Origin: a bacterium
GTDB taxonomy: Bacteria > Patescibacteriota > Saccharimonadia > Saccharimonadales > SZUA-47
Reading direction: 5' to 3'
Assembly (NCBI GenBank): GCA_030427445.1
Contig: JAUIBQ010000004.1
Location: 1 to 60,712, forward strand
DNA length: 60,712 bases
The translations under genes and the position numbers were made by a program. Positions 27,344-58,195 of this stretch are shown piece by piece (the first letter of the stretch is position 1; each line of letters opens with the position of its first letter). The notes beneath the pieces were generated by a model that was not told the origin of the DNA, did no database searches, and saw only the letters and a list, made by a program, of their open reading frames with translations.

Positions 27344-27409
27344 TGTGGAAAACTTTATGTAAAAGCGTAAGAAATATACTTGAAATATTGAACAAAATTA
27401 GTGTACACT
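27344..27409 (+). promoter_or_regulatory. Promoter of giant gene 1 with upstream DnaA-box consensus
   Basis: TGTGGAAAA (27344-27352), TTGAAA (27380), 18 nt, TACACT (27404). Confidence 0.6.
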
Positions 27410-27482
27410 AGGGTTGTATCAGAGTAAAAACTGATACAAAGGGCGCGGTTTCGAAGTTAGTCTCGCAACTCTTCGATTCAGC

Positions 27483-30400
27483 GTGTTGCCAACAAACAAC
27501 AAAAAGCAACACGTGAAATATTTAAAAAACAACAAACATAAAAACGTACTATTAAATATATGTACAGCACGGGATGGCAGAGCATCCCTTGCTGGCGTTA
27601 GAGGCCATATACAACGTGTATGGCCTCTTTTCTTTGGTCTAATTTTTCAGATCAGCCGTCGTTCAACCTCACGCGCCCGAGTGTTGAACGACGTTTGTTC
27701 TGAAAAAGTCGTCAACCGAACCCAGTCTTCAACCTCACGCGCCCGAGTGTTGAATGCTGGGTTTGGTTTGCGACGAGCAAAACTCAGTATTCTAGGTCAG
27801 ACCCAGTCTTCAACCTCACGCGCCCGAGTGTTGAATGCTGGGTTTGGCTTTGAATACGCACAACCATCATTGCAGTCAGGATTAACCTCACGCGCCCGAG
27901 TGTTAATCCTGGCTATAGTGATGATGTTGGTTGCCCCTATGGTTATGGCAGTTACTAACGTAGGTATTGCCTCCGCCGCTCCATCCGACACCCTTAACTT
28001 CCAGGGTCGACTCCTCGATGTAAGTGGGGGTCTTGTCTCAGACGGTTACTACAACATAGAGTTTAATCTCTACACTGCAGCAAGCGGTGGATCAAGCATT
28101 TGGACAGAAAGCAGAGAATATAACTCAGGCTCAGGATCATGTACTGGACCTATCAATGGCAATGACTGTCGTGTGAGAGTCTCTAATGGATACTTCTCAG
28201 TTTACCTAGGTGAGGTCACTGCACTACCAAACATAGACTACAGTCAGCAACTCTACCTCACCATGAACATTGACCAAAACGGTACAACAAGCGCAGGAGC
28301 AATTACATACGACGGAGAAATGAACCCTAGATTCAAACTCACTGCAGTACCATATGCTTTCCGGGCTGCTAATGTTGCAAGTGGAGATACAAATGCAGCA
28401 TCAACTGACTCAAGTGACGTAAGTATTACTACTGGTGATGCACTCGGTGCGACAAGTGACTCAGGTGATGTCACGATAGATTCTGGAACAGCAACAGGCA
28501 CTGCAGGTCAGGTACTACTTGGTACTACAAACGCATCAGGTGTCTTAATCGGTAACGCGGGCGCCACAACTACGATTCAAGGGAGTGTGTCGCTTACGGG
28601 TGCAGGCACAGCCCTCACGGTTACGAATGACGCACAGTTTAATGGGGATGTGACTATTGGCTCAGATACGAGCGATTCATTGACCGTAGAGGCTGACGCG
28701 ACGTTTAACGGCTCCCTCACAGTGAGTACCGGTGATGTATTCCAGAATGCAGGTGCGACACTATTTAGCGCGACTAGTATTTCAGATAGAGCCACTGGTG
28801 GCAACATAGGCACGGCAGCAGCTACTGTAGATATTGCTACGACATTCGATGTCAACCAGACGACAGCAGGTCAAACACTTACATTGCCAACTCCAACAAA
28901 TACGGCTTCTGGTCGAGTTGTTTATGTAAACAACGTAGGTTCTGAGAACTTCACGATGTACGGCGAGACGATTGAGACTGGTAGCAGTAGTACATTTATA
29001 TGGAATGGATCTAGTTGGACGACTTCAGTATCGTTCTCTAACACTGGTGTAGACACAGTAGGTGCGCTAGATGGAGTTGCTGCAGCTGCAAACGGTGCGA
29101 CGATTTCTGGTACAACTATTTATCTCCAGTCTGCATCAGCTACTGCTGCTGGATTAGTAAACACATCAGCTCAGACATTTGCTGGCACTAAGACGTTCAA
29201 TAACGGTATTGTATTAGCCGCGAATCAGACCCTCACTGTTACAGGTGGCACAACTGCCAACCGTCCAGGTTCACCAACGGCTGGTATGGTCTATTATGAC
29301 ACTGATACAAACACCCTTCTTACGTATAACGGTACTAAGTGGATCGCGGATCGTGGTGAATACATTATTGTTGCGGCCAATGACTCTACACAAGCTGAGA
29401 AAGACAGTGCTGACTACGTAGCCGATAACACCGATGACCATTTGACTATTAACTCTGCAATAGGTGCACTGAGTAGCGGCGGAGGTAAAGTGTTACTCTT
29501 ACCGGGTACGTTCACGGTAGACGGTTCAATAGAGATAGAAAGCAATGTGACGCTCGCTGGTTCTGGTCAGGAAGCTACGACTCTTATTGCTGAAGCAGGT
29601 GCTTTAGCTGCACAATACGACGTTATCGAAAATGCAAACCCAGGTTCAACTGATAACAACATAACGATCCGTGACCTAACAATCGATGGAAATAAAGATA
29701 ATGTAACTGGTAATGACGTAGAAGGTATCCTGTTTGACACAGTAGGTTCTGGCAGCGGCGCTACGTACGTACGAGGCTTCTTGATCGAGAACATCACAGT
29801 TACTGACACTGAAGGTAACGGTATAGATATCGATACATCCGCAAACGGTTCTATTAAAAACGTAACAGTAAAAGACTTTGGCGTTGCAAATGGTATCCGC
29901 TTGCTCGATTCTGACTACATTAGGGTAGAAGGTAGCGACATAATCGATGGCTTAGCCGACGGACTGTTTATAAGTGCTTCGGACAATAATATTGTGTACG
30001 GCAACTTTATCGATGACAATGGGAATAATGGTTTAGAACTAAATGGAGCAACTCGAGACAACGTTATAGATGGCAACAGGATTACAAATAGTGGTGATCA
30101 TGGTATTGAGCTTGCTGGTGTGGGAGCAAAACAATACAACATTATCAGTAACAACTATATAGGTAATAACACTGATCGAGGATTTACCTCCGTAAATTCA
30201 TATCACAACACTATAACTGGTAACCAATTCTATACAAATGACGCGTCAGGCGTTGATAGTCATATTAATCTTGGTGGATCAGGCGCTAATAACGTCATTA
30301 CTAATAACGTTATCCGTGAAAGCTCAAGTGACGGTTCGGTTTCTATTGCGATTGCGTCTGGCAACGCCACTACATATGTAGCAGATAACCTTATCGACAA

Positions 30401-33400
30401 TGTTGGAGCTGTAGCAGACTCTAGTACATCTACAATCTATGCGAACCAGATGGATGCGTCAGACAATCTTGTACTTCAAGCATCTGGTACGGCAGACGTA
30501 CTTATTAACTCAGACACAAGCATCACAGGAGCACTTGACGTGACTGGTGCAGCAACCTTCGACGGAAATGTCACAGTCGGCGACGCAGCTGGCGACACAC
30601 TCACCGTGAACGCTGGCTCTATCCAATTTGCTAATAACTTCACTAGTTGTACAGTCATTAACACTGATGCTTCAGGCAACTTAGGATGTGATACTAGTAC
30701 ATATTTGACATCAGCAACTGTCTCGTTGCAGGGTGCTTATGACGGTGGTAATACGGTCACTACAACTAATGCACGCGATATATTGTTCACTCTTGCAGAC
30801 ACTACGACCGATAGTGACTTTATCATTGATATAGCTAGTGGTTCTACAAGTGAATTTGCTATCAAAGGTGCGGGCACCAACTTCTTCACAGCTACCCAAA
30901 CAACATCTCAAGAAGGTCAAATAGCAATTAAGTCTAACAGTGACTATGCTTTTGCTATTACAAACTTCCCTAACCAAGAAGTCTTTACTGTAGACGCAAA
31001 CTATGCACAAACTTTAGTAAGTAATAATGCTAACACTGCAGGACGACCAGCACTATCATTTGCACAAGATACAGACACCGGAATATATCGCATAGGTGCT
31101 GATCAGATTGGCGTCTCGACAGGTGGTTCTTTGAGAGTATCAGTTACTGACGCAACGACGACCGTAACAAACGCTCTAACTGTCACTGGCCTCACCACCC
31201 TCAACGGTGGCCTCACTGTCGAAGCAGGTGATAACTTCACCTTTAACTCAGATGTTTTCACAGACTTCACTGGTGGAGGACTATACAACAACTCCGGAGT
31301 ACTTAGTGTCTCTAACACTGGCGCATCTGGCTTTTTCCAGAATGGTGGAAACTTATTTGGCACTACAGCTACCCTAGGAACTAATGACCTAAACCCACTA
31401 GTACTTAGAACTAACTCCACAACAGCATTAACCATTGATACTTCTCAGAACATTACTACCACAGGAAACTTAGACGTGGCTGGTCGCGGTGCGTTTGGTA
31501 ATACTGGTGGTATAGGGACTAACTTTAATTTACTCGGAATCTTGCAGGTTGATGCTGAGCTATCTGTGGAAGCTAGCATTACATCTGTTATAAACGATGC
31601 ATATCAAGCTGCATCGGCAAATATATTATCTGTCAACCCAGCATCAAACCCTGCATCTTCTGGAAATATTATAGGAGGATTTGATTACGCTGAGGTGAAT
31701 GCTGCCAACACTACAAATGTTAGTAACCTAAATCTTGTTGGAACCGCTGGATTCGCTGTTGCACAAGGTAGCGGTGACATAGGAAGTGTTTCAGGCGGTT
31801 CCTTCAGTACTACTAATCTCAGCACGGGTACAGTCGGAGTGCTCTCGGGCATAGAAGCAGTTGTTACAAGTGGTGGGAGTGTGTCGGAGGCCTATGGAGG
31901 TAATATCATCCTTGGCAATTCAGGCAGTGGGACAATCTCAAACGCCAGAGGACTGAGAATTGACGTATTTAACTCGGGCAGTAGTATAACAAATGCCGCG
32001 GGCATAGTTGTTGAGAGGGTTCAAGGCACTAATACTACCAACTTGCTACTAGGTACAGGCACAATCCCATCCGGCAACTACTCAATCTACAGTGCTTCAA
32101 CAGCAGCTAACTACTTCGCAGGAAACCTCACATTAAACCAAGCACTGTTAGTTAACGGCAACACTACAATCGGTAACGCGAATACCGACACCTTGACAAT
32201 AAACGCTGGTTCATCTGGAAGTGGCATTACATTTGGGGATAGCTCATTTGCAAACTGTACACTTACTACGGTTGCAGGCGTTCTAACGTGTGGTTCATCT
32301 GGCTCTGCTTCTGACTTACAGGGTGCTTACGTCGGTGGTAACACAATTGTGGCAACCAATGCCGAAGGCGACATTGATTTGACGGTATCTGAAGCAACGA
32401 ACTTTACTGTAGACATAACAGGTACTGGTAACTTCCAGGTGCAAGACGGGGGCACACCGGTATTTACAGTAGCTGACGGCGGGGCATCAACATTTGCTGG
32501 GACATTAGCCGTGAATGCAGGCACTATAACAAACAGCGGTGCTGCTCAGTTAATTAACTTTACTTTAGGTGATGACGCAGATCAGGATCAGGTGGTAGGT
32601 CTAGCTGTTCAGCCGACAAGTGTAAACGGTGGTGATTTCGACAATCTTGTAGCTATATATGCAGCGCCTATTACTGCCTATGCTAACACCTGGGAAGTTG
32701 CGTACGGAGTTGGAGCTGGGTACGATATCGACTTTATTGTTTCAGACTCAGACGCAGTCTTTGCAGTAAATGATGGTGGGGTGTACAACTTCAACTCATA
32801 TAATGGTGCAACATTTGATACGCTAGTCACAATTACTGATGTAGGTTCCGTTGGTAACGTCGGTATAACCGGCACATTGCAGGTTGATGGCCTCACCACC
32901 CTTAACGGTGGCCTCACTATCCAAGCGGGAGACACATTTAACTTCAACAGTGACGCGTTTAGTGACTTCACAGGGGGCGGTCTCTACAACAATGCCGGTG
33001 TATTAAGCGTCACGAACACTGGTGCAAATGGGTTCTTCCAAAATGGCGGGAACAGCTTCGGTGTAGCTACCACTATCGGCACTAATGATGCACAAGCCCT
33101 AGGTATAGAAACAGGTGGGACCACACGCTTCACAGTAGCAGCTGCAGCCTCGACCCTAACTGGTAACGGCGCTACAACAATATTTGGTGGAACTTCACTT
33201 TACTTAGGTACTACTGGGGCCAATTCACTAACATTGGCTACAAATGGTACTACGAGGTTTACAGTAGCTAATAATGCTTCAACCATAAGCGGAAACGGTG
33301 CGACAAGTCTTGTTGGTGGTACTACACTAACCCTCAACGCAGCAGCTACAAGTGCACTCAACTTAGGGACAACTCAAACAACTGGAATACTTACCATTGG

Positions 33401-36400
33401 AGGCACTGGTGCAGCAACAGGAGCTATCAACCTAGGTACAGGTACGGGAGACCAAACGATCAACCTGGCAACTGGAAGCGGGTCTGGCAATAAGACAGTT
33501 ACGCTTGGAGCAAATAACGGTTCTAGTTCTACGACAGTACGATCAGGTTCTGGTGGAATTTCTCTACAAGGTAATACATCTGTATCTGGTCAACTCACAA
33601 TCGGTCAGGCTGATACTACCGGTACACTGCTCGTTTTAGATACTAAAACAGATCTAGGTGATCCGTCTGGCGTAAATGGTGCCCTGTACTACAACTCTAA
33701 TATTGATAAGTTCCGATGCTATGAAAATGGTTCATGGGTTGATTGTATGGCTGTAGTTTCAAACGGGACAAACCTGTATGGAGGCACAGGTGCACTTAGC
33801 ACAAATACAACAGGGTACAGTAATGTGGCATTTGGACAGAATGCGTTAGGGGTAAGTACGACAGGTTGGCAAAATGTCGCGGTAGGTGTTGGATCACTTT
33901 TTTCATCAACAGGTAATGACAATATCGCAATTGGCTTTAATGCTGGAGATAACCTCACTTCTGGCAACGGCAACATAATTATTGGCTCTGATATAGATTT
34001 TGCCTCTGCAACTGGCTTTAATCAACTAAACATCGCAGGTCTCATAACAAGCTCAAACTACACATCAGGCGGGCAGTTTAATGGCACCCTATTAGTGACA
34101 GGTCTAACTACACTCAATGGTGGCCTCACTGTTGAAGCAGGCGACACATTCACATTTAACTCCGATGCATTCACAGACTTCACTGGCGGTGGGTTAGTAA
34201 ATACAGGCGGTGTTCTATCAGTTGATACAACATCTGCAGCTGGCTTCTTCCGTAATGGAGGAAATAGCTTCAGTGGTACTGCAACATTAGGCACAAACAA
34301 CGCTAACAGTTTAGTACTGGAAACTAACAATCAATCAGCGCTAACTATAGCTAATGGCGGTGCTATTACTCTCCAGAACGCATCTAACTCTACAAATGCG
34401 TTTCGTGTGAACACGTCAGGAGGGGCGTCACTACTTAACGTCGATACTACAAACTCACTCGTGACGGTAGCGACGCCAGTCTTCCAGACAGTGACAAACA
34501 CTAACTGTGGAGTGAACTGTACTATTACTCAAAGTAATGTAGACAACAATTCAGCAATCATTGTAAATGCTACAGCAGAAGAACTGGAGATCACTCTACC
34601 TGATCCTACTAATGCTACAGCTGGTCGTGTTGTGTATGTTACAGCAGCGAATGGTTCAAACGACTTCACATTGCTTGTAAATGGCGGTGGTCAAGGCAAC
34701 GAGATTGCGATGCGCGCTAATACTACAGCGACGATGATTTGGAATGGAAATGATTGGACAGCTGCTGGTGCATCTAGTTCTACAACTCTGCAGGCAGCAT
34801 ATGACAATACACTTACAAGTGCCGGTGGTGCAGAAATTGTACTAAGTGCCGCAGGAGGAAACGCAGACGGACTTACAGTTCGAAACAATGCTACTGCGCC
34901 TATTATTGGTGGTATATTTGAGGCTCAGACGTCTATAGGCTCTAACTTGTTCAGTGTGAACAACAATGCAACAGAATTTGCAACGAATGGTGGAGCAGAA
35001 ACCGACGGTGGTGGGGCAAGTACATTCCCAGTAAGTACTTGGGATACAACTACAGGCGGTACGGTCGATAGATACACTACAGCTGGCGACAACGTCGCTA
35101 CAGGACAGGCTTCTGTACGAGTTCAGACTACAGGTGTTAATCACGGCGCTCGAAATAGAATAAGCACCGCACTGACATCAGGTCTTACATACACCGTGTC
35201 ATTTGCTGTCAGAGCTACTTCAAGCTTCTCAACGTTAGATGTTCTTTACTCTCCTGATGGCTCTACTTCCGGCACGACTAACTGTGCAACTGGACAACGA
35301 GTAACTAGTGGCCAGTGGACTCGCATCACCTGTACGTTTGTAGCTGGTGGTAGTATCAACTCAAATAATTCAATATTGATAAGACAGTCAGATGGAACAT
35401 CAAGGACATTCTATATAGACAACTTGAGTATCAACGTGAACGCTTCGGCTTCGTTCGCGGCAGATGGTAGCGTAGATGTAGCACTTGGCAGTAATTGGAC
35501 TGCATTCGGTACGCTAGACTCACTTACAAGAGAGACAAGCGTTATCTATGACACAAGTGGAAGTGTTGCTGTTGATACTCCTAACGCTGCTAACAGGGGC
35601 GTACGAAACAACCTATCGATTACTCCAGATACAGATACTCAATACCTCGTCAGTTTCTATGCGAGAAGCACAAACACATTCAATGACATTCGGGTCAGAT
35701 ACTCACGTAACGGAGGTTCAAACTTCGTAACTTGTGAAGACTACAATACTCAGAGCATATCGACGACTGGCTTTACAAAAGTAACGTGTCTCTTCACGAC
35801 AGACGGTACGACTGCATCTAACCCCGACTTGATTATTGATCAACCAACGGGCTCTAACCGTATCTTCTACATCGATGCGCTCACTGTGACACTTAACAGC
35901 GATACATCTAACAATGTTCAGATTGGTGGTGGTAATAGAGGTGGTCCCGTTACACTGTTCACCCTCGACAGATCAGCTGGTGCTCCGATAGCAGACAACA
36001 ACGAAGCATATCTCGGCTCTATGTACTATGACACCACAACAGGACGCATCCAATGTTATGAAGCTGATGGATGGGGTGCATGTGGTGCTCCACCTGACAA
36101 CGTAGTTAACCTAAACCCTGAGTATGCTGGTTCTGTGCTTAACGGCTCTGGTGTGGGTACTATGACTGCAGACTTCTGTTCAAATGGTACTGACCTTACT
36201 GTGAACACCAGTTTCTGTGATACAGGTGAAGCGCGTAACTTCTACAACTGGACATCTCCTCAAGCTACAGAACAGACATATAGCATCTATGTGACGTATC
36301 AATTACCTGAAACCTTTAACGGCTTTAGTAGCGATGACACTGTTCAGCTTGTGGGTCGTGTCGACAATACATCTAATGCATCTGTAACTTACGAAATGTT

Positions 36401-36790: not shown

Positions 36791-39700
36791 ATGAAAAGAT
36801 TCAGAGGGTATTCTAAATCGAGCAGGAGCGGCAAGATGGTCGCAAGTGGATACTATGCTTTAAGTGATATAGGCTTATTTATTCTCGACCGAGTAGAGAG
36901 GCTTACTAGATCATTTTCTCATTCAAGACGGCTTAGTTTTTTGTTTTTGGCAGTCTTGTTTTCTTTCTCGATTTTTAGTGAGGCATTACTGTTTTTAAGC
37001 AAAGTTGATGCTTCTGACAGAATTACAGGGCAAGTCGAACAACTCTTGGTTGAGAAAATATCTAGCTATGGGAATTTTTTGAGTTTGAGCGAAGACGGAT
37101 CGCATTATGAATACAACAAGGGGTACCAAACCGGCAACAGTACGCTCGGAACGAAAGCATCGCCAAAGTTTAGCGGTCAATTCCCAGTCGATGGCTCAGA
37201 AGGTGTAACGGTCAACGATCCTTCCAGTGGTGTATCGATAAAGATTATCCCGCAGTTTAGGGTTGGAGACGCGTCCAAAGACGAAAATCGACTTGTATAT
37301 CCTCTCCTGGGCAGAGATGCCCTAAAAGTCGTCTCTCTCGGAGGAATCGGTTACAAAGAAGATATCGTTCTCAACACCTACCAGGGGAGGAGTCTTGAAT
37401 TTGACTATGAGTTAGATATACCAAACGGCATTGAGGCTAGACTCGAAGCTGACGGGTCGGTTGCGTTCTATGGCGTCAGAGATGAACTATTGGGTGATGT
37501 CACGACTGCAACCGAACAAGATTTACAGCTACTCGAGAGCGCAAAAGAAAATGGTGAGAAAACAAATTTATTGTTCAGGATACCAGCCCCATACACGCTT
37601 GAATACGCTAGGGAAGTGAGTGTCGTTGATACGTATTTCAAGCTTGACGGTACGACGTTAACCACAGTTGCAACGAACCTCGCTGAGGCGAAATATCCTT
37701 TAACCATCGATCCAAGTGTGTATGTAGAAACTGCACGGAAATTTCTACGTGGTAATGAAGAAACGAACGTCGACTTTGATGTCGACAATGAATTAATTCA
37801 GAAAGGCACCACCACAGGTGCTCGGTTCAATAATTGGTCGAGCACGCTAGCTTTAAACGAAGGACTATACGATGGCGGCAGTGCAGTAGCTGGTGGATAT
37901 GTCTACTACGTAGGGGGCCACACAGGTGCAGGTGGCACAACAGTCGAAACATTTACGTCTGATGGTACGTTTAACGTCCCGGCAGGAGTTACATCGGTAA
38001 CTGTAGAGATGTGGGGCGGTGGCGGCGGTGGCGGCGGCGGCGGTACGAACGCCGGCAGTAATGGCGGTGATGGCGGCGGCGGCGGCTACGCACGTTCAAC
38101 TGTGTCTGTGACACCTGCAGAAAACCTGAATGTTCTTGTTGGCGGCGGTGGTGGCGGCGGTGAAGTAAGTGGTATCTCAGGATCAGGCGGCGGTGGCGGC
38201 GGTCACTCAGAAGTCAATCGCGGTGGTTCACCTTTGGTTATAGCGCCAGGCGGCGGCGGTGGTGGCGGCGGTGATAACTCAGGCGGTGCTGTAGCTGGAG
38301 GTGATGGTGGTGCAGGTGGAGATTCTTCTGGCGGCCTTCCCGGTGATAGCTCAGGATCAGCAGGCGGCGGTGGCGCTGCAACATCTTCTAGCGGTGGCTC
38401 AGGAGGTAATGGTCCTAATAGTGATGGTGAAGCAGGTGGGTCTGAGTTTGGTGGCGACGGTGCAGACGGTCGTGATACCGAAGATAATTCAGATGGCTCT
38501 GCGGCAAATGGCGGATCAAATGGCGGCGGTCCAGGTGGTTTAGCGAACGAGAGCGCTGCGGGTTTTGGTGCTGGCGGTGGCGGTGGTAGCGGATATTATG
38601 GCGGCGGTGGTGGCGCTGGTTCGCAGTCTGGTGGTGATGGTGGTGGCGGTGGTGGTAGTGGTGTTGCGTATTTTGGTGCAGGTACGTCTTCCACGACATC
38701 CACTGGTGGAAGTGGCGCTACACCGGGTAACAGTGGCGACCTTGATCGTGCTGGTGCTGCAGATGGCGGTTCAGGCGGAAACTCAGGAGGCTCTCAGTCA
38801 GCCGGTAGTGTAGGGGACGACGGTATCGTAATTATTTCTTATACAGTATCAGCTTCAAACACAACCAATACTACAGTCTACTGGGCAAATATCGATGATA
38901 ACAGCGGTGGCGTTAGCTCAGCCAACCCAGGAAATGGTGCATGTGCATCATGGTGTACCAATACTGACTACGACCTACCAGAAGAACGACGATCGTTTAG
39001 TTTAGTGGCATATAATGGGTTTCTTTATGCAATAGGGGGTGAAGACGACAGCGGTAACTTCGAAAGTACAGTTTATATAGCGAAGATAGGCGCCAATGGA
39101 GAGCCGAGTTTATGGCACCCTACTGATGACAACAAGGCAAACTGGGTATATTGGTATGAAGATACCAGCGGAGCTTTATCGACCCCAACCCGCTATGGTG
39201 CTGCAAAGGCCTTTAACAACAGACTCTACTTTTTAGGCGGTGAAACATCTGGCGGCGTTGTATCAACAGTGCAATATACTGACTTCGAACCAACTGGCAC
39301 TTTGTCTGGATGGACAACATCTGGAACATCATCCATGTCCACGCCTCGTTACATGCATTCAGTCGAAGCATACAATGACTATCTCTATGTAATAGGCGGA
39401 GATGCGAACACTAGTGGTTCTTTATTGAATACTGTCGATTATGTAAAGCTTGCGAACGATGGGACTTTTGATGGATCCTGGGAATCCACGAGCGCTTTTA
39501 GTAGTGCAAGGCGTACAAATGGCGGTAAATTTACAGCAGTGTACGGAGCATATATTTATTTAACAGGTGGGTGTGTCTCTGTAAGCAGTGGGTATTGTCA
39601 GTCTGTGGGGGATGAAATACAGATTGCTAGCATCTTTGCCGACGGCAGTCTGGGTGATTGGTCTACTGACAGTAATGAAACCAACAATAGAGTAGGGTAC

Positions 39701-45492: not shown

Positions 45493-45547
45493 TACGGCAG
45501 ATCTAAAAAAATAAAAAAGATCAAAACAAAAAAACAAAAGGCTACAA

Positions 45548-48500: not shown

Positions 48501-51500
48501 TTACAATTGCAGATGGTGGTGCCGTAACTGCTACACAGCTCGTTACACTCAATGGCGGTCTTACGGTAGAAGCTGGCGATACATTCACGTTTAACAATGA
48601 TGCATTTACGGATCTTACCGGTACAGGATTACAGATTAACTCTGGTAGCTTAGAAACAACTCTTGGCACAACAATCGAGACTTCAGAAATAACAGATGCT
48701 AATGTAACGAACTCAAAACTTGCTAATAGTCAGCTGGCGGTAAATACAGGCTCAGGGTTAGCGGGTGGTGGCAATATCTCATTGGGTGGTTCAAGAACGT
48801 TAAGTCTTGGTGACTTGTCATCTGATTGGACGCAAGCTGGTGGTTACGACATTATCCTCGACAACGCAGGCAGTGAGCTCCGGATTGTTGAAGCTTCTGG
48901 TGGAATATATTATGGCGAATTTGATGTCACGGATTTAAATGCAGACAGACTGTACACTTTTCCTGATGCATCAGGTGAGGTATCTGTTCTCGGTCAGATA
49001 ATTGAGAATGGCGAACTTCAAAACAGTAATGTAACAATTACAGCGGGTACAGGGCTGTCTGGAGGTGGGCTTGTCGCGTTGGGTGGAAGTGTGAGTCTTA
49101 CAAGCACACTAGGGTCATCTATTGATGGCACAGAAATCGATAACGGCACAATAGAAGCAATTGATTTTGAAGTGACAGCTGCTCCTACAGATAATTACGT
49201 ACTAAGTTATGATTCCGCGACAGGAGGGTTTACTTGGGTTGATCCGGGGGCTGTAGGTACACAATTGACAGAAGCAGAGGTTGAAGACTACATTTTCGAC
49301 GCTGATAATGGTGTAAAGGTTTTAAGCTCAGGACAGTTAGCGTTAAATTCATTGACTTATACTGGTCAACTCGAGAATGCAAATATCAGCGACACTCTTA
49401 CTATAGGCTCATCATCGACTGTTGACGACGGTGCGTTAAGTACTAACGTTTCATTACTCGGTAGTTCAATCGCATTGGGTTCAGAAACTACAGGCAACTA
49501 CGTACAATCGATTTCTACAGGTAACGGTATTCAAGGCGGTGTTAGTGGTGTGGGCAGCACCCCTGCTTTGTCTCTTAGTGATTTAACGGCGAACTGGAAC
49601 CAAACAGCCGCATTTGATTTAGTGTTGGATAACACTGATAGCCAACTTCGTATCTTAGATGATGCGGGTACATACTACGGTGAATTCAATGTTACAGGTA
49701 TAGGGTCTGACCAGGTCTATAACTTCGGTACTGGCGGAGTGATACTATCGTCTGGAAATATTGCATCATACGCAACAACAGGAGTTACTGCAGGCGCAGG
49801 TTTAGTTAACGGAGGTACGACCGGAACTATTACGTTAGATGTCGGGGCGGGTAATGGTCTTACGGTAAATGCTAACGATATAGAAGTAGATTATGGCTCA
49901 AGTGCTAACACGGCTGTCGAAGGAAATACAACGATAACTATATCTGCTGGTACAGGTCTTTCAGGGGGTGGACTATTAACTCTCGGAGCAGGAGGTACAG
50001 TAACATTAAATAGCAATCTTGGAGACACAATAGATAGCTCAGAGATAGTAAATGGTACTATTCAAGGTGCTGATCTGGAGTCTACTAATAGTGCGACCGA
50101 CACATATGTATTAACTTATGATAGTGCAACAGACGGGTTTACATATGTTTCTCAAGCTGCAGTAGGTAGCGCAGGTGGTAGTGGCGTAACATCTCTTAAC
50201 TCGCTCACAGGAGCCCTATCTATAAACGGGAATTCTCAAATTTCCGTTGCACCATCTGGGACAGACATAGATCTAAGTATCGCAACAGGCAGCATAGGCG
50301 CAACTCAGCTCGGTTCAACCGCAGTTACTGCAAGTAGTTATGGTTCAGCTAGTCAAGTAGCAACATTTACTGTAGACGGTGATGGTCGTCTGACTGCCGC
50401 CGGAAACACTTCAATCTCTATAGCCGCTACTCAAGTCACCAGCGGTACATTATCTGTTTCGCGTGGCGGTACTGGCGTAGGGTCTCACACGTCAGGAGGA
50501 ATCTTGCTTGGTAACGGCACAAGTGCAATACAAAATACAGGCGTGTTAACGAATGGTCAATTACTTATTGGTGATGGATCAGGAGCACCTACAGTAGCAA
50601 CATTAAGCTCGGGTTCAGGTATAAATATCACAAATGGTTCGGGTAGTATAACGATCGCATCTACACTAGGAACTGCCGTAGACGGAAGTGAAATCGTTAA
50701 CGGTAGTATAGAGGCTGTTGATATTGAATCTACAAATGTTGCGGGTGCCGGAACTGACAACTATTTGTTGTCATATGACAATGCTACAGGTGGCTTCACC
50801 TATGTAGATGGAGGAAGCGTTGGAACGACTCTGACTGAGGCTCAAGTCGAAGCTTACATCTTCGATGGCGACAACTCAGGGATACTTAGTTCTGGTACAT
50901 TAGCCCTCAACTCATTAAGCTACACAGGTAGCTTAGGAGTAAGTAATGGTGGCACTGGACTAACAAGTGCTGGTGCAGCAGGTGGTGTGTATTATTCTAC
51001 GGGAACAGCATTCGCCAATAGTGGAGTGGGAACTTCGGGCCAATGTTTACTTAGTAGTGGAGCAGGTGCGCCAACCTGGGGTAATTGTGGTGGGTCTGGT
51101 GCAGGAGCAGTGACACTGCAGGTAGCATATGATCAAGGAAATACAATTACTACTACGAACGCAAGAAACATAGCATATACTCTTGCAAACACAGCAACAG
51201 ATAGTGATTTTGTTGTTAATATTGCATCGGGTTCTTCAAGTGAAGTTGCATTTCAATTTAACGGTTCGTCATTATTACGAATAGATAGCGGTGGAATTGA
51301 CCTTATTGATGTCGATGTAGCTGATTTCAGCGGAGCGACTGTTACATTTGATGCTGGAGAAATTTTAGAAACAGAAATAGCTCAAAATTCTCTTGATGAT
51401 TCAGAGATTGAAGACGATAGTCTGACTTCTAGTAGTTTGGCGGCTAACTCTGTTGACTCATCAGAACTCTCAAGTACCACCGTCGGTGCTGGAAGTTATG

Positions 51501-54500
51501 GTACCGCTAGTTCAGTAAGTTCATTCACGGTTGACGCAGATGGCAGGTTGACTGCTGCGAGCAATACTCCTATAGCAATAGCAGCTACGCAAATTACTTC
51601 TGGTCAACTTAACGATGCTCGATTAAGTGCAAATGTGGCATTACTAGATCGTTCCGGTCAAACATTCACCGGAGCAAATACTTTTAGTGCTGCCGGAACT
51701 GCATTAACTGTAACGAATAATGTTAGTATCGGTGGATCACTTAGTCTTGCAGGTTCAGTAGTAAGGAGCTGGAGTGCATCTGATACAGATGTGGATAGTC
51801 TTGTCACTGGCACAACTTCTTCAGGTACACTTGTTGAATCACCTGAAAATGCACACTTTACAATCGGATTACGTGAAAACGGAGCTGATGATTCATTCAG
51901 TATTATTAGCGGTGATGGCAACTATAGTTCAGACACAACATACGATAAAGTGGTGTTGCGAGTAAATGCGAATGGCGCAACTACTTTAGGCGGCAACACA
52001 ACTATCCAGGGAGATTTAACAGCTACTGGAGCTAACCTTATACTCGGTACAACAGATCTTAGTGAGGCAGATCTCGACGCGCTTGACGACGGAGTCATTA
52101 ATTTAAATACTGAAACTACTGGAACACTTTCAGTAGGGAATGGTGGTACAGGTACAACAACACTGGCTTCTGGTGTGCTGTTCGGTAACGGCACTAGTGC
52201 GATAACATCAACAGGAACCCTTAGTAATGGACAGCTTCTAATTGGTGATGGTTCCGGCGCTCCAAGCCTTGCTACATTAACACAAGGATCTGGTGTAACT
52301 ATAACGAATGGTGCAGGATCGATCTCGATTGCGTCTACATTAGGCACAAGCATAGACAGCAGTGAGATAACTAATGGATCAATCGCAGAAGTAGATCTTA
52401 GTATTTCAAACTCTCAGGCATCTGGATGGGTTCTAACATCTGATGGCTCTGGTGGCTTTACATGGGTAGACCCGGGAACCGTCGGTTCGACTCTAGATGA
52501 GGCAACTGTAGAGAGTTATATCTTCGACGGCGACAATTCAGGTACTCTTAGCTCTGGCACTCTTGCTCTTGACTCATTAAGCTACACTGGAGACTTAAAC
52601 GATGCTCAGATTAGCAATTCGCTAACAATCACAGCTGGGAGTGTGAATGGTTCGGTGTTGACTGCAGGCAGTGTGGCGAATGGGTCATTAGCCAATAGCT
52701 CGATTACTGTTACGACTGGGAATGGTTTAACTGGTGGAGGCGGTGTCTCACTTGGTGGGTCACTTGGCCTATCGTTATCAGCACTTACTGCTAACTGGGA
52801 TCAAACTGGGGCCTACGATATCGTGCTTAACAATGCTGCAAGTGAGTTGCAGATCTTGGAGAGCGTAGGGGGCACATATTATGGTACGTTTGACGTGGGC
52901 AACCTAAGTAGTAACCAGACATTTACTTTCTTGAATGGTGGCACAGTTGTTACTAGCAGCAATACATCCACGTACGCTACAACAGGAGTAACTGCTGGGA
53001 GTGGTCTTACTGGTGGTGGCACTACAGGGGTTCTTGGAGTAAACGTTGGTGCTGGTACCGGTATTACTGTTAATGCTGATGATATTGAAGTCGACTATGG
53101 CAATACAGCCGGTACAGCTGTTGAAGGTAATACTTCTATATCTGTTACGGCGGGAACAGGTCTTTCTGGGGGAGGAAGTATTACCCTAGGATCAGGTGGT
53201 TCAGTCTCATTACAGAGTACGCTTGGTACTAATATAGATTCAAGTGAAATAGTTAACGGAACAATTCAAGAAGTTGACTTAGAAGTTACGAACGCAGGTA
53301 CAGACAATTACTTATTAAGCTACGATTCTGCGACAGGCGGATTTACCTGGGTAGACCCAACTGGTGTTGGAGTAAACGAAGCAACAGTCGAAGCCTACAT
53401 CTTCGATGGCGACAACTCAGGGACACTTAGTTCTGGTACACTAGCCCTCAACTCATTAAGCTACACAGGTAGCTTAGGAGTAAGTAATGGTGGCACTGGA
53501 CTAACAAGTGCTGGTGCAGCAGGTGGTGTGTATTATTCTACGGGAACAGGTTTTGCTAATAGCGGAGCAGGCACAAGTGGAAATTGTCTCGTAAGCAATG
53601 GCGCAGGAGCTCCTAGTTGGGGTGCATGTGGTGGTGGTGCCGGCTTAACCACTCTGCAGGTTGCCTACGATAATGGTAGTAATTTAACAACAACAAACAA
53701 TCGCGATATCGAGTTTGTACTTGCAGACACGACGACCGACTCTTCATTCATCATTAATTTACAGGGCACAGGCAACTTATTTGACGTTCAAGATGCTGGC
53801 ACTAGCAAGCTGACTGTTGACGGTGCTGGTAATGTGGGAATTAATGATGCTTCACCAGGCTATAATCTTGATGTAAACGGTACATTTAGAGTCGTTGGAG
53901 CATCTTATTTTAACGGGCATATTGATTTAGGTAATGCGACTACTGACAATATTAGTTTTATCGGTCAAGTTGATAGTGACATTTTGCCCGCTACTAACGA
54001 TACGTATTCATTAGGCTCTTCTACACTTCGGTGGCAAGATCTATATCTTGGGCCAGCGAGCTTACACATTGGGGCCGATGGCGATGAAGGTGTATTGAGT
54101 TACAATACGGGAACTAACCAGTTCAACTTTGATAAAACAGTTAGAATTGATGCTGGTAGCGACACAAATGGAGGCTTACTTGTTAATGGTACTTCACAGC
54201 CGAATATTATGATTGCAAATGCTGGAACGATTAGAGCTCGTCTCGCGGTGGCCACTGTTGGCGGGGGCTACTCAAGCGATTCGAGTGTAAATGATGTCAT
54301 ATTGCGCTCTGAAGGAACGCGATTATTGTTCAATACTAACGGTGGCGGTGCATCTAGCTTAGCGGTAAACGGAGCGGACGTAGGAATCGGTACGCAAAAC
54401 CCTAATGCACGACTGCAAGTAAACGTTAATAATTCCGGTGTATCAGGAGACTTGAACACTACTGGAGTTGTTTCAGACTTAGACTCTAGAGATGGAGTTA

Positions 54501-56722
54501 TAGAGATCACAAATGATGTAGATAGTATCTTTGCTGGAATCCGTTTTGCTGCATTCAACGCCGAAGCAGCTATCGGTGCATCGTATGATTCCACAAATAA
54601 CTCATCACTAATATTTGGTACCGAAAGCTCAGCTAGTGCGGGAAGCATAACAGAGCGCATGCGTATCCAGTCTTCAGGCGATGTAGGTATCGGCACTGCA
54701 TCTCCTACCAACGCGCTGCATGTGTATAGGACTGGTTTTAGTCCTACGTCAAATGACGACACAGCGTTTCGGGTTGAAGGTAGCTGGGGTGGAGGAATCA
54801 CATTTAGTGAAAACGCCAATCGAGCGATGATTTGGTCGCCTGCTGGTAATTCTCTAGCATTTGGTACTGGTTGTAGCGCTAGTGGCTGCTCAAGTCAGAG
54901 CGGTAATCTGCAAATAGAATCAGGAGGAGATATTGTTGCCGGCAGCACTTCGAACGGTACTACAAATGTCAGACAGTTCAAGTTGCAGAGTGAAGGGTTT
55001 GCAGTGGTTAACCTAAAAGGCGATACTGAAAATTCAGCTGGTGAGCCAGGTGGAGCAGGTATTAAGCTGTCTGTAGATAATAATACCGATTCGAGTTATA
55101 ACGGGCTGTTCTCAATGATAAATTCTGCAGGTACAGATGGAGTGGGCGGCACGTATACTGGTACAGCAAGTAACAGCTTGCTACTCGGAACAGTCAATAA
55201 CTATCCACTTCAGTTCGGTGTGAATTCTAGTGTTGCACTAACACTCGAGAACTCAGGGACTCTCCAGTTCCCAAACAATACACAAGCTAAGATTAATCTT
55301 TACAGTACTACGTATGGACTAGGCGTAAGTGGCAACACATTGCAAGTTTATTCAGATAGGTATGTCGACTTCAACTCACTTGGTTATAACGGAACGACTC
55401 GAGTAGTATTTGACCTCGACAACGGTAACGCGACCTTTAACGGTACACTGCGTGCAGATAACGGCTTCGTTGCAGATGGCAATACTGTCATTGATAACGG
55501 CGGTGGCTGGCACCGCGCTCATGGTGACACAGGGTTTTATATCCAAGACTATACAGCAGGTATTCGAGCACTTGATGTACGTGTTCTTGATACCTACGAG
55601 AACAACGATTTTGATGTTAATGGTGGTGATCTCTATGTTCGAAACAGCGGTACATCTGTCGCAACGAACGGTAGTAACGGTGACTATACACGAATTCATC
55701 ATAACGGAACTAGTGGTTATATCGATGCGACCGGTGCTATAGTTTTAAGATCAAACGGAGGATCGGGAGGATTTACTGCTACCCTTGCAACAAACGGTAA
55801 TTTCACTGTCGGTTCCGGGTCACTGTTTGCTGATAACTTCGTGCCTACTGCAACAGGTTTCCCATATGTCGGAGCTTCAGCAGCGACGCAGAGCGCAGGA
55901 TCGGCATGCCGTTCAGGTAGTACAGGGCTTGGTTATGCGATTGGACGATGTTCATCTCTTCAGCAATATAAAGACTATACGACAGATATACCTTACGGGT
56001 TAGACACTCTTAGAGACTTGCGTCCTGTTAAGTATAAGTGGAACATCGATAGCATGGAGTGGGATATTGGATTTATCGCGGAAGAAGTTAATGCAGTAAA
56101 TCCAATCTTTAATGAGTATGCAGATGGTGAGCTTTCTGGTGTTAAGTACAGTCACTTAACTGCTTTGATTACTAAAGCCGTTCAGCAACTTGATGTTCAG
56201 GTGCAATCACACGACACACGTCTCTCTGCGCTAGAATCTTCCACTACAAACTTAACAAAGAAAAACATCACTGTTACAAATCAAACTACTACTGGTAAGT
56301 TATCTGTTACTGGCACTGCAACACTAACTAATCTCAAAGTAACAGGCGCTACTGAGGTTGCAGACCTTAAAGTAAACGGGAAGATTATCTCTGCAGGAAG
56401 TACCCCAACAGCAGTGTTGGGAGTGTCAACAACAGGAAATGGCTCGACATATTCAATTAGTGGCAACGATACAGCAGGAAGTGTAGAGATTACTACTGGT
56501 ACCGACACGCCTGCTAACCCACTTGCTTCTGGAGTGCAGGCATCGATTACATTTACCGAAGCATACAGTTCAGCACCGAGGGTAACGCTAACCCCAACAA
56601 GTGAAGCTGCTGCAGAGATTGGATATTACATTACTAAAACAACGTCTGGATTTAAGATACGATTTACTCAACAACCTCAGGCGAATACAACGTATAGCTT
56701 CGATTACCAGACCATCCAATAG
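45548..56722 (+). CDS. Giant exported tail-fibre-like protein (3724 aa) with beta-helix and peptidase S74 chaperone
   Basis: Signal peptide ending AEA; TLNFQGRLLD domain; beta-helix (~46870-48080); AGTGLSGGG and GGTG fibre repeats; SSLQQYK...LRPVKYKW...GFIAEEV...Y..L plus coiled coil. Confidence 0.9.
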   Translation: MHYSGRDARKAFKVKKKALLENHSSGNAFFIAFKDLGSTLRIKWILFACICLVVPFSVLPSSLTGQIAEAAPADTLNFQGRLLDSSGGLTSDGFYDIEFNLYDNASGGSSLWTETWNTGTSQVRIANGYFSVYLGTHTSFPSLDWTDDKFLTMNVEGDGEMNPRFRLTAVPYAFAAQQATELVASDSGFTTNVTVDTPTQNNSITLPDESGEVCLTSGNCAGVGGVGDILDGGQTGAISIGTTNDTTLTLLQNNNAALTVNSSQLLQFNAYSCSTFANGGTLTTDASGNVICADDDGGGGGSGVTTIGTIDGGTLSSNGASISGTTLYLQAASTLYPGLVTTGSQTFAGSKTFNSPAVFQDLTISAGESLQINSEWFGDLTGNGLTNSGSALTVLVQANKGLEVDSNGISLIDCADGQILQYATGSSSWACADTAGTGSDEIITVAAVDSTATQKAAADYVADGTSDETEINNALTEAYNSGVGGEVILLGGTFTVDGSISIPNNTTLSGEGSGTVIELDNLDSDINLITNTDTSGGTGVVVRDLTLDGRSDLNTAGNQFAILFSGMGSVSADRAGGLIENVSIVDFSPAGGFFYGGIALNGSDNNVISGNTLEGNGFGVYVGGSSKNKITDNYISGGNLGIYAQLTSNDNVIADNTISEHSLHGIHFDSSGTGTAITGNTIENNDQFGVYLENGFYYASIVGNTITSNDYGGIYLDIAHGSTIAGNTFDGNAGAVSTYAATDNTIVGNTITNSSIGGVYLEQSDTNIVSDNIFTNNAGDNIYLESDSNNNTISNNIITDSAASGFAIEINGATNDNNYLSNNTYSGTGAAGINDSGTNTIYAGQVDTSGNYDIQPTGTVELLANTNLTGDFDVTGTTSFDGAVTIGDAVGDTLTVNAGSIQFANNFVSCTAINSDASGNLGCDTNTYLTAGTISLQGSYDGGNTILADNAGGDIDFTVSEATSFTVDITGTGSFQVQDSGVAVFTIADGGAVTATQLVTLNGGLTVEAGDTFTFNNDAFTDLTGTGLQINSGSLETTLGTTIETSEITDANVTNSKLANSQLAVNTGSGLAGGGNISLGGSRTLSLGDLSSDWTQAGGYDIILDNAGSELRIVEASGGIYYGEFDVTDLNADRLYTFPDASGEVSVLGQIIENGELQNSNVTITAGTGLSGGGLVALGGSVSLTSTLGSSIDGTEIDNGTIEAIDFEVTAAPTDNYVLSYDSATGGFTWVDPGAVGTQLTEAEVEDYIFDADNGVKVLSSGQLALNSLTYTGQLENANISDTLTIGSSSTVDDGALSTNVSLLGSSIALGSETTGNYVQSISTGNGIQGGVSGVGSTPALSLSDLTANWNQTAAFDLVLDNTDSQLRILDDAGTYYGEFNVTGIGSDQVYNFGTGGVILSSGNIASYATTGVTAGAGLVNGGTTGTITLDVGAGNGLTVNANDIEVDYGSSANTAVEGNTTITISAGTGLSGGGLLTLGAGGTVTLNSNLGDTIDSSEIVNGTIQGADLESTNSATDTYVLTYDSATDGFTYVSQAAVGSAGGSGVTSLNSLTGALSINGNSQISVAPSGTDIDLSIATGSIGATQLGSTAVTASSYGSASQVATFTVDGDGRLTAAGNTSISIAATQVTSGTLSVSRGGTGVGSHTSGGILLGNGTSAIQNTGVLTNGQLLIGDGSGAPTVATLSSGSGINITNGSGSITIASTLGTAVDGSEIVNGSIEAVDIESTNVAGAGTDNYLLSYDNATGGFTYVDGGSVGTTLTEAQVEAYIFDGDNSGILSSGTLALNSLSYTGSLGVSNGGTGLTSAGAAGGVYYSTGTAFANSGVGTSGQCLLSSGAGAPTWGNCGGSGAGAVTLQVAYDQGNTITTTNARNIAYTLANTATDSDFVVNIASGSSSEVAFQFNGSSLLRIDSGGIDLIDVDVADFSGATVTFDAGEILETEIAQNSLDDSEIEDDSLTSSSLAANSVDSSELSSTTVGAGSYGTASSVSSFTVDADGRLTAASNTPIAIAATQITSGQLNDARLSANVALLDRSGQTFTGANTFSAAGTALTVTNNVSIGGSLSLAGSVVRSWSASDTDVDSLVTGTTSSGTLVESPENAHFTIGLRENGADDSFSIISGDGNYSSDTTYDKVVLRVNANGATTLGGNTTIQGDLTATGANLILGTTDLSEADLDALDDGVINLNTETTGTLSVGNGGTGTTTLASGVLFGNGTSAITSTGTLSNGQLLIGDGSGAPSLATLTQGSGVTITNGAGSISIASTLGTSIDSSEITNGSIAEVDLSISNSQASGWVLTSDGSGGFTWVDPGTVGSTLDEATVESYIFDGDNSGTLSSGTLALDSLSYTGDLNDAQISNSLTITAGSVNGSVLTAGSVANGSLANSSITVTTGNGLTGGGGVSLGGSLGLSLSALTANWDQTGAYDIVLNNAASELQILESVGGTYYGTFDVGNLSSNQTFTFLNGGTVVTSSNTSTYATTGVTAGSGLTGGGTTGVLGVNVGAGTGITVNADDIEVDYGNTAGTAVEGNTSISVTAGTGLSGGGSITLGSGGSVSLQSTLGTNIDSSEIVNGTIQEVDLEVTNAGTDNYLLSYDSATGGFTWVDPTGVGVNEATVEAYIFDGDNSGTLSSGTLALNSLSYTGSLGVSNGGTGLTSAGAAGGVYYSTGTGFANSGAGTSGNCLVSNGAGAPSWGACGGGAGLTTLQVAYDNGSNLTTTNNRDIEFVLADTTTDSSFIINLQGTGNLFDVQDAGTSKLTVDGAGNVGINDASPGYNLDVNGTFRVVGASYFNGHIDLGNATTDNISFIGQVDSDILPATNDTYSLGSSTLRWQDLYLGPASLHIGADGDEGVLSYNTGTNQFNFDKTVRIDAGSDTNGGLLVNGTSQPNIMIANAGTIRARLAVATVGGGYSSDSSVNDVILRSEGTRLLFNTNGGGASSLAVNGADVGIGTQNPNARLQVNVNNSGVSGDLNTTGVVSDLDSRDGVIEITNDVDSIFAGIRFAAFNAEAAIGASYDSTNNSSLIFGTESSASAGSITERMRIQSSGDVGIGTASPTNALHVYRTGFSPTSNDDTAFRVEGSWGGGITFSENANRAMIWSPAGNSLAFGTGCSASGCSSQSGNLQIESGGDIVAGSTSNGTTNVRQFKLQSEGFAVVNLKGDTENSAGEPGGAGIKLSVDNNTDSSYNGLFSMINSAGTDGVGGTYTGTASNSLLLGTVNNYPLQFGVNSSVALTLENSGTLQFPNNTQAKINLYSTTYGLGVSGNTLQVYSDRYVDFNSLGYNGTTRVVFDLDNGNATFNGTLRADNGFVADGNTVIDNGGGWHRAHGDTGFYIQDYTAGIRALDVRVLDTYENNDFDVNGGDLYVRNSGTSVATNGSNGDYTRIHHNGTSGYIDATGAIVLRSNGGSGGFTATLATNGNFTVGSGSLFADNFVPTATGFPYVGASAATQSAGSACRSGSTGLGYAIGRCSSLQQYKDYTTDIPYGLDTLRDLRPVKYKWNIDSMEWDIGFIAEEVNAVNPIFNEYADGELSGVKYSHLTALITKAVQQLDVQVQSHDTRLSALESSTTNLTKKNITVTNQTTTGKLSVTGTATLTNLKVTGATEVADLKVNGKIISAGSTPTAVLGVSTTGNGSTYSISGNDTAGSVEITTGTDTPANPLASGVQASITFTEAYSSAPRVTLTPTSEAAAEIGYYITKTTSGFKIRFTQQPQANTTYSFDYQTIQ
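45593..45640 (+). terminator. Terminator-like hairpin inside the 5' part of gene 3
   Basis: GCATTACTAGAG-AATCATAG-CTCTGGTAATGC-T7. Confidence 0.75.
50845..51008 (+). repeat. 164-bp intragenic repeat, copy 1
   Basis: 161/164 identical to 53386-53549. Confidence 0.9.
53386..53549 (+). repeat. 164-bp intragenic repeat, copy 2
   Basis: 161/164 identical to 50845-51008. Confidence 0.9.
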
Positions 56723-56819: not shown

Positions 56820-58007
56820 TTACTTAGACTCAGGTAGGCCGGTAGTTGTTGCACGATGGAGCAGGTCACTTACAGCCTGGCCTATCTTAAGGTGTCCGTC
56901 GCTGTCAGGGTGTAGGGAGTCTGCGCCACCACCATTAAAGTTGGGGTTATTATAATTGTCGAAGAATTGTTCGTCGCCTTTGCCATCGAGGTCAGTATCC
57001 ATACCATAGTCAACAGGAGTTAGGATACCTCGAGCTAGTAGCTCATCATTTAAACTAGCAATTTCATTAAATACTTCTGGATTTTGCGAAAAGTACCCCC
57101 AAGCAGAAGCTACAGGAGGGGTGGGCAATACAATAACATTCTCTACTCCCATGCTTTTCATGTAGTGAACTGCTGCGTTAATATCATCAGCTGCTTTTAC
57201 AATCTTTTCCTGTGAAGGTAGTTTCGAACTGTTGATTTCATTAATCGAGGGAGTCAAAAGTACTGTATCCGGAGTGTTATCGCCACCTAAGAAATAGTCC
57301 TGAACCTGGTCTAGTAGCCTACTATTTGCACTGTTACTGAGTGGGTTTTCTGTACCTATAGTTTGGCCTGGTACAGCAAGATTTTCTACCGTTACATGTG
57401 ATGTTACAGGGTCGTTGTGTAATGATTGTTCTACGATATCAACCCAGCCTGGTGTTTCATTGCCGTGGTTTGCGACGATTGAGTCACCTAATATTACGAT
57501 TTTGTTCATGTTTATAGGAGATGTTGTTTCTACAGCCGAGCTTCCATCTCGTCCTTCTATTGTTGTTGAATGCGACGAGTTAGTAGGTTGTGCTACCGTA
57601 GTGCTAGCTATAGAGCTTTGGGGGGAATTCGTTTCGTGAAGAGGTGTGCCTGTGTCTGTTTTGGTCGGCGTGTCAGCTAGTTCACCCGTAGGGTAATAAT
57701 CTAAGTAGTTAGTGTCATGAAGTGGTTCTGACGATGCTGGTAATGTCGTAGAAGGCAAGGGTGCTGCAATAACATCATTTGGCCCGATATCATCCTGTGT
57801 AACTAGAGTCTGCTCTATAGTAGGTTCTTCCCGAACATTAGGAAGCATAAAAGTAGCAATTGTCGCGAGGGTGACTAGGGCACCACCTTTTCTAATTAAT
57901 GACCGTCTGCGCACCTCAGGAGCGGGAGCGTTATTTTGAGCAGAGGAGCCTTCACTAGTCTCTAGTAAGGTATCAATATACGTAAAATCTTCGGTGGGAC
58001 TGTTCAT
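56820..58007 (-). CDS. Membrane-anchored SGNH/GDSL hydrolase
   Basis: TM, Thr/Pro/Ser linker, LGDSI block I, DSLHP block V; ATG 58007 is 6 nt after TGtTATAAT. Confidence 0.85.
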   Translation of the reverse strand: MNSPTEDFTYIDTLLETSEGSSAQNNAPAPEVRRRSLIRKGGALVTLATIATFMLPNVREEPTIEQTLVTQDDIGPNDVIAAPLPSTTLPASSEPLHDTNYLDYYPTGELADTPTKTDTGTPLHETNSPQSSIASTTVAQPTNSSHSTTIEGRDGSSAVETTSPINMNKIVILGDSIVANHGNETPGWVDIVEQSLHNDPVTSHVTVENLAVPGQTIGTENPLSNSANSRLLDQVQDYFLGGDNTPDTVLLTPSINEINSSKLPSQEKIVKAADDINAAVHYMKSMGVENVIVLPTPPVASAWGYFSQNPEVFNEIASLNDELLARGILTPVDYGMDTDLDGKGDEQFFDNYNNPNFNGGGADSLHPDSDGHLKIGQAVSDLLHRATTTGLPESK

Positions 58008-58131
58008 GGTTTCATTATAACACTTATGTATAAAAATGTAAAGGGGGGAGTAAACTGTATATCCTTTTAATAGTAGTATCATACTGCTAGCAATGAAATA
58101 CTAAATTATACTATGGCTGTCTTTCGGTGAA

Positions 58132-58195
58132 TGTGGAAAAATTAAAGATTTCACAGTAGCGAAATATTGCTTTTTACAACAGATGTCGTTACAGT
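58132..58195 (+). promoter_or_regulatory. Promoter of giant gene 4 with DnaA-box consensus
   Basis: TGTGGAAAA (58132-58140), TTGCTT (58167), 17 nt, TACAGT (58190). Confidence 0.6.

Follow-up and report, generated by a model that had tools for sequence, protein, structure and literature searches.

DnaA-type boxes at helically phased positions upstream of giant fibre-like genes and a wider gene set in Saccharimonadales

The replication initiator DnaA is already known as a transcription factor. According to published reports, it activates ftsZ, gcrA, and podJ in Caulobacter crescentus, where its regulon also includes mipZ (PMC8203912), binds the ftsL promoter in Bacillus subtilis (PMC8203912), and has ftsL, sda, nrdAB, polA, and proS among its targets in B. 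subtilis and Escherichia coli (PMC8203912, PMC11317965). The mechanism of DnaA activation is called poorly understood in a 2024 chromatin immunoprecipitation study (PMC11317965). In Saccharibacteria, attached mother cells bud motile swarmers (PMC10633639), and the regulation of the cell cycle and of the mother and swarmer states in Patescibacteria is virtually or completely unknown according to a 2024 perspective (PMC11665869). Here we describe DnaA-type boxes upstream of three giant fibre-like genes, the sole TLNFQGRL-domain genes of their genome, in a window of 60,712 nucleotides, i.e., the whole of contig JAUIBQ010000004.1 (assembly GCA_030427445.1), from a very small parasitic bacterium of the order Saccharimonadales. 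The genome comprises 966 kb in 43 contigs (G000; the window is its contig C34).

The arrangement is similar to the Caulobacter regulon in that the initiator would activate division and developmental genes in an organism with a non-replicating swarmer stage, Caulobacter having polar-development genes as targets. It differs in that the targets here are structural appendage genes together with mraZ and the division and cell wall (dcw) cluster, the boxes are single and spaced by whole helical turns across an order, and the system is known from sequence alone. With the B. subtilis and E. coli targets it shares the same 9-mer, a box at the division-gene cluster, and an aminoacyl-tRNA synthetase gene (proS there, thrS here); however, their sites are clusters or double boxes, and the sections consulted describe no helical-phase rule for them (PMC8203912, PMC11317965). 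The proposed Saccharibacteria regulon, its appendage targets, and the whole-turn series appear to be new, as a literature search, with most subscription papers outside its reach, found no paper on any of the three.

Our preferred reading, to which we assign a probability of roughly 0.6, is that DnaA binds a single phased box and activates the fibre promoters and those of a conserved gene set through a class I-like contact with RNA polymerase. DnaA activation is favoured because the motif is identical to that of the boxes at dnaA, the sites are conserved and spaced by whole turns, DnaA domain IV is canonical, and RNA polymerase has an alpha-subunit C-terminal domain (alpha-CTD). We infer DnaA as the binder, activation as the effect, and the alpha-CTD as the contact.

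A preliminary description of the window had placed the three boxes in the same + strand orientation, ending 27, 26, and 26 bp before the predicted -35 elements, and these positions are exact (Table 1). All three promoters are predicted, and they are backed by the conservation of -35 and -10 in orthologues and by a 5' hairpin that begins 4–7 nt past each -10. The hexamers of promoter 1 are kept across 14 aligned orthologues, and promoter 3, which a generic promoter scan did not recover, aligns with the TTGAxx/TACACT promoters of 10 orthologues. The stretch from box to -35 is 73–85% AT. Of the small share present in one metatranscriptome, only a 158-nt contig lies over 27426–27557; its loose end crosses the predicted -10 and may be DNA or read-through, and contigs cannot show starts.

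Table 1. Boxes, predicted promoters, genes, and leader of the window
Feature	Position	Strand	Details
DnaA-type box TGTGGAAAA, fibre promoter 1 (type A)	27344..27352	+	ends 27 bp before -35
Predicted sigma-70 promoter 1	27380..27409	+	TTGAAA (27380), 18 bp, TACACT (27404-09); generic scan 9 of 12
Structured leader RNA, type A	27414..27636	+	5' hairpin, GGGCGC stretch, start-codon hairpins, intrinsic terminator 27600-27628; z = -6.6
Giant fibre-like gene 1	27513..36638	+	3041 aa from conserved GTG; TLNFQGRL domain at aa 160; weak Bdello_MAT_N
Giant kelch-repeat secreted protein	36791..44503	+	2570 aa; not a TLNFQ paralogue
DnaA-type box TGTGGATAA, fibre promoter 2 (type B)	45429..45437	+	ends 26 bp before -35
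Predicted promoter 2	45464..45492	+	TTGATT (45464), 17 bp, TACAAT (45487-92); generic scan 9 of 12
Giant fibre-like gene 2	45548..56722	+	3724 aa; beta-helix, C-terminal S74 chaperone
DnaA-type box TGTGGAAAA, fibre promoter 3 (type C)	58132..58140	+	ends 26 bp before -35
Predicted promoter 3	58167..58195	+	TTGCTT (58167), 17 bp, TACAGT (58190-95)
Giant fibre-like gene 3	58318..60711	+	BclA_C/C1q domains; open at contig end

The strict motif TTWTCCACA (equivalent to TGTGGAWAA) occurs at only 21 sites in the 966 kb, 14 of them between genes, where 2.3 are expected, and 7 inside genes, where 17 are expected. Three of the 14 intergenic sites sit upstream of dnaA, and one falls in what we take to be 16S rRNA sequence. 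The TTWT[AGT]CACA variants have no intergenic excess (14 versus 13.4 expected), and the window shows no excess of the loose consensus TTWTNCACA (5 sites against 7.3 expected). Strict boxes are present in 12 of 338 intergenic regions of at least 100 bp (11 of 295 in a second count), and in 12 of 381 in G007, the 988-kb single-contig genome of a relative; for boxes at all three fibre promoters this gives p of about 3e-5, a post hoc value.

Conservation was followed in the DNA upstream of TLNFQ-domain genes, at loci with at least 600 bp upstream and with the window's three included; four loci from two unpublished genomes (G006 and G019) and one mis-parsed locus were left out. An exact box lies upstream in 45 of these 62 loci, some of which are near-copies, and in 0 of 30 control regions of 750 bp upstream of rpsA. 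By leader type, type-A loci have the box in 13 of 13 cases, type-C loci in 10 of 12 (at a gap of 24–29), type-B loci in 5 of 6, and the others in 17 of 31, and the type-A box was found in 17 of the 31 genomes of the family. At six of the 17 boxless loci, the preceding gene is no more than 235 bp from the domain, which suggests a position inside an operon. In both the type-A and the type-C alignment, the box, TTG, and TACACT stand out as three islands of conservation, and the DNA that separates the box from -35 varies. Among type-B loci, the box is near the promoter solely at the window's 45429 site, and in the orthologues of promoter 2 it mostly lies about 170–190 bp from the best promoter. 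Fibre promoters with such a distant box would require an additional factor, a loop, or a promoter further upstream that escaped prediction. Their spacers (L010, L018, L025, L027, and others) are AT-rich and contain TTACAAC 11 times against 1.5 expected, in 10 of 15 spacers, with TATTACA also enriched; the two sequences are candidate sites of a second regulator.

Promoters for the box-to-promoter gaps were chosen by a score for which random intergenic positions show no preferred gap. The gaps to -35 cluster at about 4, 13–19, 24–29, and 34–39 bp, which puts the box centres near -44, -56, -66, and -76 if the -35 element starts at -35. Open-gap scans, in which the gap was free over 30 bp and promoter scoring was not used, give similarly discrete classes. 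Among the 150 mraZ matches listed of 219, one of them from an unpublished genome (G459), the match lengths are 47 (3 matches), 55–57 (22), and 64–69 (125), with none at 39–46, 48–54, 58–63, or 70 in the allowed range of 39–70; matches one turn shorter come from six families and those two turns shorter from a seventh. A reverse box with TTGACW and an extended -10 was matched in 129 of 201 genomes (133 matches), at lengths of 42 (2), 48–54 (122), and 60–63 (9). The box-to-(-10) distance at type-A fibre loci is 49–52 bp in 16 genomes and 41 bp in one, while type-C-leader promoters in metagenomes (n = 18) fall at 36–38 (5), 48–51 (12), and 58 (1). The gaps are 4, 13–17, and 24–26 at Pam-type pilin genes, 15–16 at thrS (12 of 15), and 15–18, 26–28, and 39, plus one of 20, at a gene for a 170-aa protein. 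On the tree of the latter, the classes 16, 27, and 39 and the single off-phase 20 require at least four changes. No box of the phased classes runs into the core promoter (gaps of 13–39 to the predicted -35 in the main classes), and the separation of the box from the preceding gene varies, from about 4 to 325 bp.

Class I activators are characterized by a site that stays on one helix face and tolerates shifts by whole turns. The confinement of the present site to one face upstream of -35, together with its mobility by whole turns, therefore points to a contact with polymerase. The marboxes of MarA, SoxS, and Rob, which are also non-palindromic sites upstream of -35, have class I spacings of about 15–16 and 26–27 bp from -35, resembling the gap classes here. 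However, the marbox orientation is fixed per class, whereas both orientations occur upstream here, and the marbox binder belongs to the AraC family, unlike the binder here. The marbox class I window is given as -56 to -85 in the sections consulted (PMC12052159).

For a list of the wider regulon, all boxes in eight genomes were collected and their neighbours named, after which targeted searches were made. The recurring neighbours are dnaA, mraZ at the head of the division cluster, the fibre genes, Pam-type pilin genes, thrS, the 170-aa gene, and a dif-like site. A box lies upstream of mraZ in 217 of 301 genomes of the order, with 0 in every row of the reversed-pattern control, and upstream of the Pam pilin gene in 19 of 27 cases, of thrS in 17 of 30, and of the 170-aa gene in 28 of 30; the last three counts each take in two loci from G006 and G019, and one pilin upstream region is counted twice. 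Fibre genes, pilins, mraZ, and thrS have the box in forward orientation; the 170-aa gene has it reversed, as do two fibre loci.

The preliminary description had proposed a fibre regulon with boxes at a fixed position. A DnaA-type site at a constrained promoter position does have good comparative support, and the positional enrichment in orthologues, whose absence would have spoken against the proposal, is present. However, the distances differ by whole turns instead of being fixed, the orientation depends on the gene, the box is mostly far from the promoter in the orthologues of promoter 2, and the site is not specific to fibres, as it also occurs at mraZ and the dcw cluster, pilins, thrS, the 170-aa gene, dnaA, and the dif-like site.

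Evidence on the binder comes from dnaA itself, as exact boxes with the same motif as at the promoters lie upstream of dnaA in 8 of 8 genomes. In an alignment of DnaA domain IV to solved DnaA structures, the RQ.AM, P, and DHTT..H residues are kept, and the RNA polymerase alpha subunit carries an alpha-CTD. In G007, the only single-contig genome examined for skew, dnaA at 392 kb lies about 22 kb from the GC-skew minimum (near 370 kb), which makes the oriC label approximate; in G000, a skew change on contig C29 lies about 38 kb from dnaA. No other box cluster of equal quality that might mark a separate oriC was found in G007 or G000. A double-box model was not supported: a second box occurs at no more than 11 and 14 of 101 sites at two offsets.

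In the mechanism that we favour, DnaA would bind the strict box on one helix face upstream of -35, and bound DnaA would contact RNA polymerase through the alpha-CTD and thereby raise initiation. Active DnaA in replicating, host-attached mother cells would then turn on mraZ and the dcw cluster, pilins, and attachment fibres together, and budded progeny might leave equipped to attach. This link to attached versus free states is conjectural. Also tentative, and in our judgment somewhat less likely than not, is the broader proposal that DnaA is a life-cycle master switch, in which phased boxes join division (mraZ and dcw) to pili and giant host-attachment fibres so that mothers arm their swarmers, and which would provide the first natural rule for DnaA activation of RNA polymerase. 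The result names a candidate regulator and a small number of targets, and it defines a promoter geometry precisely enough for a test by a few base changes; because the mraZ version occurs in 217 of 301 genomes of the order, such a test is not tied to the uncultured source genome.

Several observations weigh against DnaA activation. Kin are not independent, and a test on ortholog-by-gap units, which preceded the open-gap scans, gave p = 0.016 for the 14 units with at least two members and p = 0.053 for all 29 units. Both box orientations share nearly the same phase, which is unusual for an asymmetric activator, and the double boxes preferred in E. coli, although not a universal rule, are mostly absent. 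At 16 fibre loci (types B, D, and E), including four of the five boxed type-B loci, the best promoter is mostly 160–220 bp from the box, and a fibre N-terminus follows within 400 bp in only 9 of the 18 metagenome loci, all in the 48–49 class. thrS lies outside the surface and division theme, and its promoter calls score low. Outside the order, a box is present at 6 of 23 mraZ loci of other orders in the class and at 5 of 26 fibre-domain loci of other Patescibacteria, the latter at other distances, and a phylum scan gave 40 matches versus 4 in the control, with diffuse gaps and no clear bands. The same box-promoter geometry was not found in other Patescibacteria, either at fibre loci or in the phylum scan.

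The binder could be another lineage-specific protein that recognizes a DnaA-like 9-mer as a phased activator, the candidates being a sigma4/delta-like helix-turn-helix (HTH) protein and the 170-aa protein. In E. coli a single box is a poor predictor of DnaA binding: the sections consulted report 13 of 32 perfect single boxes bound and a preference for double boxes 2–3 bp apart (PMC11317965). In addition, only the C-containing variant is used here, a flanking C/T+T is conserved, and the sigma4 and HARE-HTH protein does exist, its gene being preceded by a box in 2 of 8 genomes. We nevertheless consider another binder unlikely, given that the identical strict motif clusters upstream of dnaA in 8 of 8 genomes, that DnaA has canonical recognition residues and should bind these sites anyway, and that the depletion in coding sequence fits a tight binder.

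Equally improbable to us is a repressive role, in which DnaA, bound on that helix face, blocks the alpha-CTD from the AT-rich DNA before -35, traps polymerase, or nucleates an ATP-DnaA filament, the genes being on in non-replicating swarmers. Many known targets are repressed by DnaA and the sign can switch with nucleotide state, as stated in the part of the review consulted (PMC8203912). The DNA between box and -35 (73–85% AT) would suit such a block, and free cells need attachment fibres most. However, mraZ and dcw should be on in dividing cells, and most -35 hexamers are non-consensus. Moreover, steric repressors normally overlap the core promoter, and it is activators that typically tolerate whole-turn shifts as far as about -76.

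There is still less to be said for boxes that serve as titration sites or as transcription roadblocks or insulators rather than as promoter elements, an explanation to which we give a slim chance. DnaA roadblock termination is described in the sections consulted (PMC11317965), many boxes come after an upstream terminator, and one conserved box adjoins the dif-like site, where there is no gene. On the other hand, the helical-step spacing is tied to the downstream -35 and not to the upstream gene, the upstream neighbours at fibre promoter 3 and thrS are divergent, and titration loci are clustered whereas the boxes here are single. Finally, chance matches in AT-rich intergenic DNA, with which the unenriched loose consensus in the window agrees, can practically be dismissed because the strict motif is rare, enriched between genes, and depleted in coding sequence, and because fibre-locus conservation and the mraZ and reverse-box scans stand against them, with the rpsA and reversed-pattern controls refuting chance.

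The window also holds the core genes rpsA, infB, priA, ftsA/Z, nrdR, nrdJ, ileS, and rplU, along with four giant secreted-protein genes. In three of the four, an N-terminal TLNFQGRL domain follows a hydrophobic signal stretch. Their domains include a beta-helix, an S74 chaperone, and BclA/C1q, and the S74, C1q, and BclA domains suggest that the products work like fibres. In these domains and in weak Bdello_MAT_N matches they resemble the mosaic adhesive trimer (MAT) fibres of Bdellovibrio (NF053851 and NF058579/81, for these fibres and the Pam pili); they differ in that the MAT_N matches, at 19–29 bits, are below the curated cut-off of 60. All 13 type-A loci keep the GTG start of gene 1 in an uninterrupted frame. 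The fourth, kelch-repeat gene has its own predicted extended -10 and upstream DNA without a box.

Some of the box neighbours deserve separate mention. The pilin gene follows a pamT-like gene, an arrangement that may correspond to that of the Pam pili of candidate phyla radiation (CPR) bacteria; the matches here are below curated cut-offs (pamT-like 233.8 bits versus 240, pilin C-domain 31 versus 55). The main text of the Pam pilus paper contains neither 'DnaA' nor 'promoter' (PMC13278184). The 170-aa gene, which follows rplL (G000 C21:48721-49230, L178), is 69–89% identical in 58 of 61 genomes and has the most conserved reverse box upstream. Its protein has no Pfam, NCBIfam, or PDB match; its neighbours in the protein atlas are CPR clusters auto-labelled L7/L12, a label that probably reflects the adjacent gene. 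The dif-like palindrome, with central TGTATA, is near-invariant in 7 aligned genomes and lies in a gene-free stretch between convergent genes (G000 C4:28600-29150, L174), where GTTC-N7-GTTC repeats flank it and a DnaA box lies about 165 bp from it. It has no Rfam family, and its position in G007, at 43 kb of 988 kb with dnaA at 392 kb, is not opposite dnaA. In several genomes, a box like what we take to be the NrdR operator lies just upstream of the mraZ DnaA box (G000 C4:20590-20700, L173), and GTGGG repeats, presumably of MraZ type, lie inside the mraZ promoter. An Rfam LOOT RNA adjoins a DnaA box on G000 C23 (L179:1339-1454), and the protein that fuses sigma-70 region 4 to an RNA polymerase delta-like (HARE-HTH) domain is conserved (L130, L143).

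The fibre leaders match no Rfam family. In the type-A leader (27414-27900), the conserved structure has compensatory changes in 8 of 35 pairs. Its invariant GGGCGC(A/G) stretch (27441-27447) complements the YGCGCCCG loops of 2–6 repeated hairpins in the 5' coding region, which in the window are at 27670, 27736, 27817, and 27889; 5 of 5 G-type leaders have C loops, and 8 of 11 A-type leaders have T loops. The terminator lies inside the open frame of gene 1. The leader and loops, which occur once in the genome, are a candidate kissing-loop antitermination or attenuation element for the 9-kb gene. Terminator-like hairpins with U-tracts also occur inside the 5' coding ends of gene 2 (45592-45637) and gene 3 (58357-58400), the latter kept in 11 aligned type-C loci.

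Between -35 and -10 of type-A promoters, GAACAcAtTTGTT is conserved (27386-27403; L009, L013, L016, and others) and is a candidate repressor site. Its assignment as a LexA operator was rejected, as one query found no lexA in G000 and no paper was found. CTTATGCT was likewise rejected as a second operator and reads as extended -10 context. G000 also contains an intergenic repeat with the core CAAA(C/T)GGCGTG (30 copies, 21 intergenic), and TAACAGAT occurs in 66 copies, 34 of them intergenic, including copies between the dnaA boxes.

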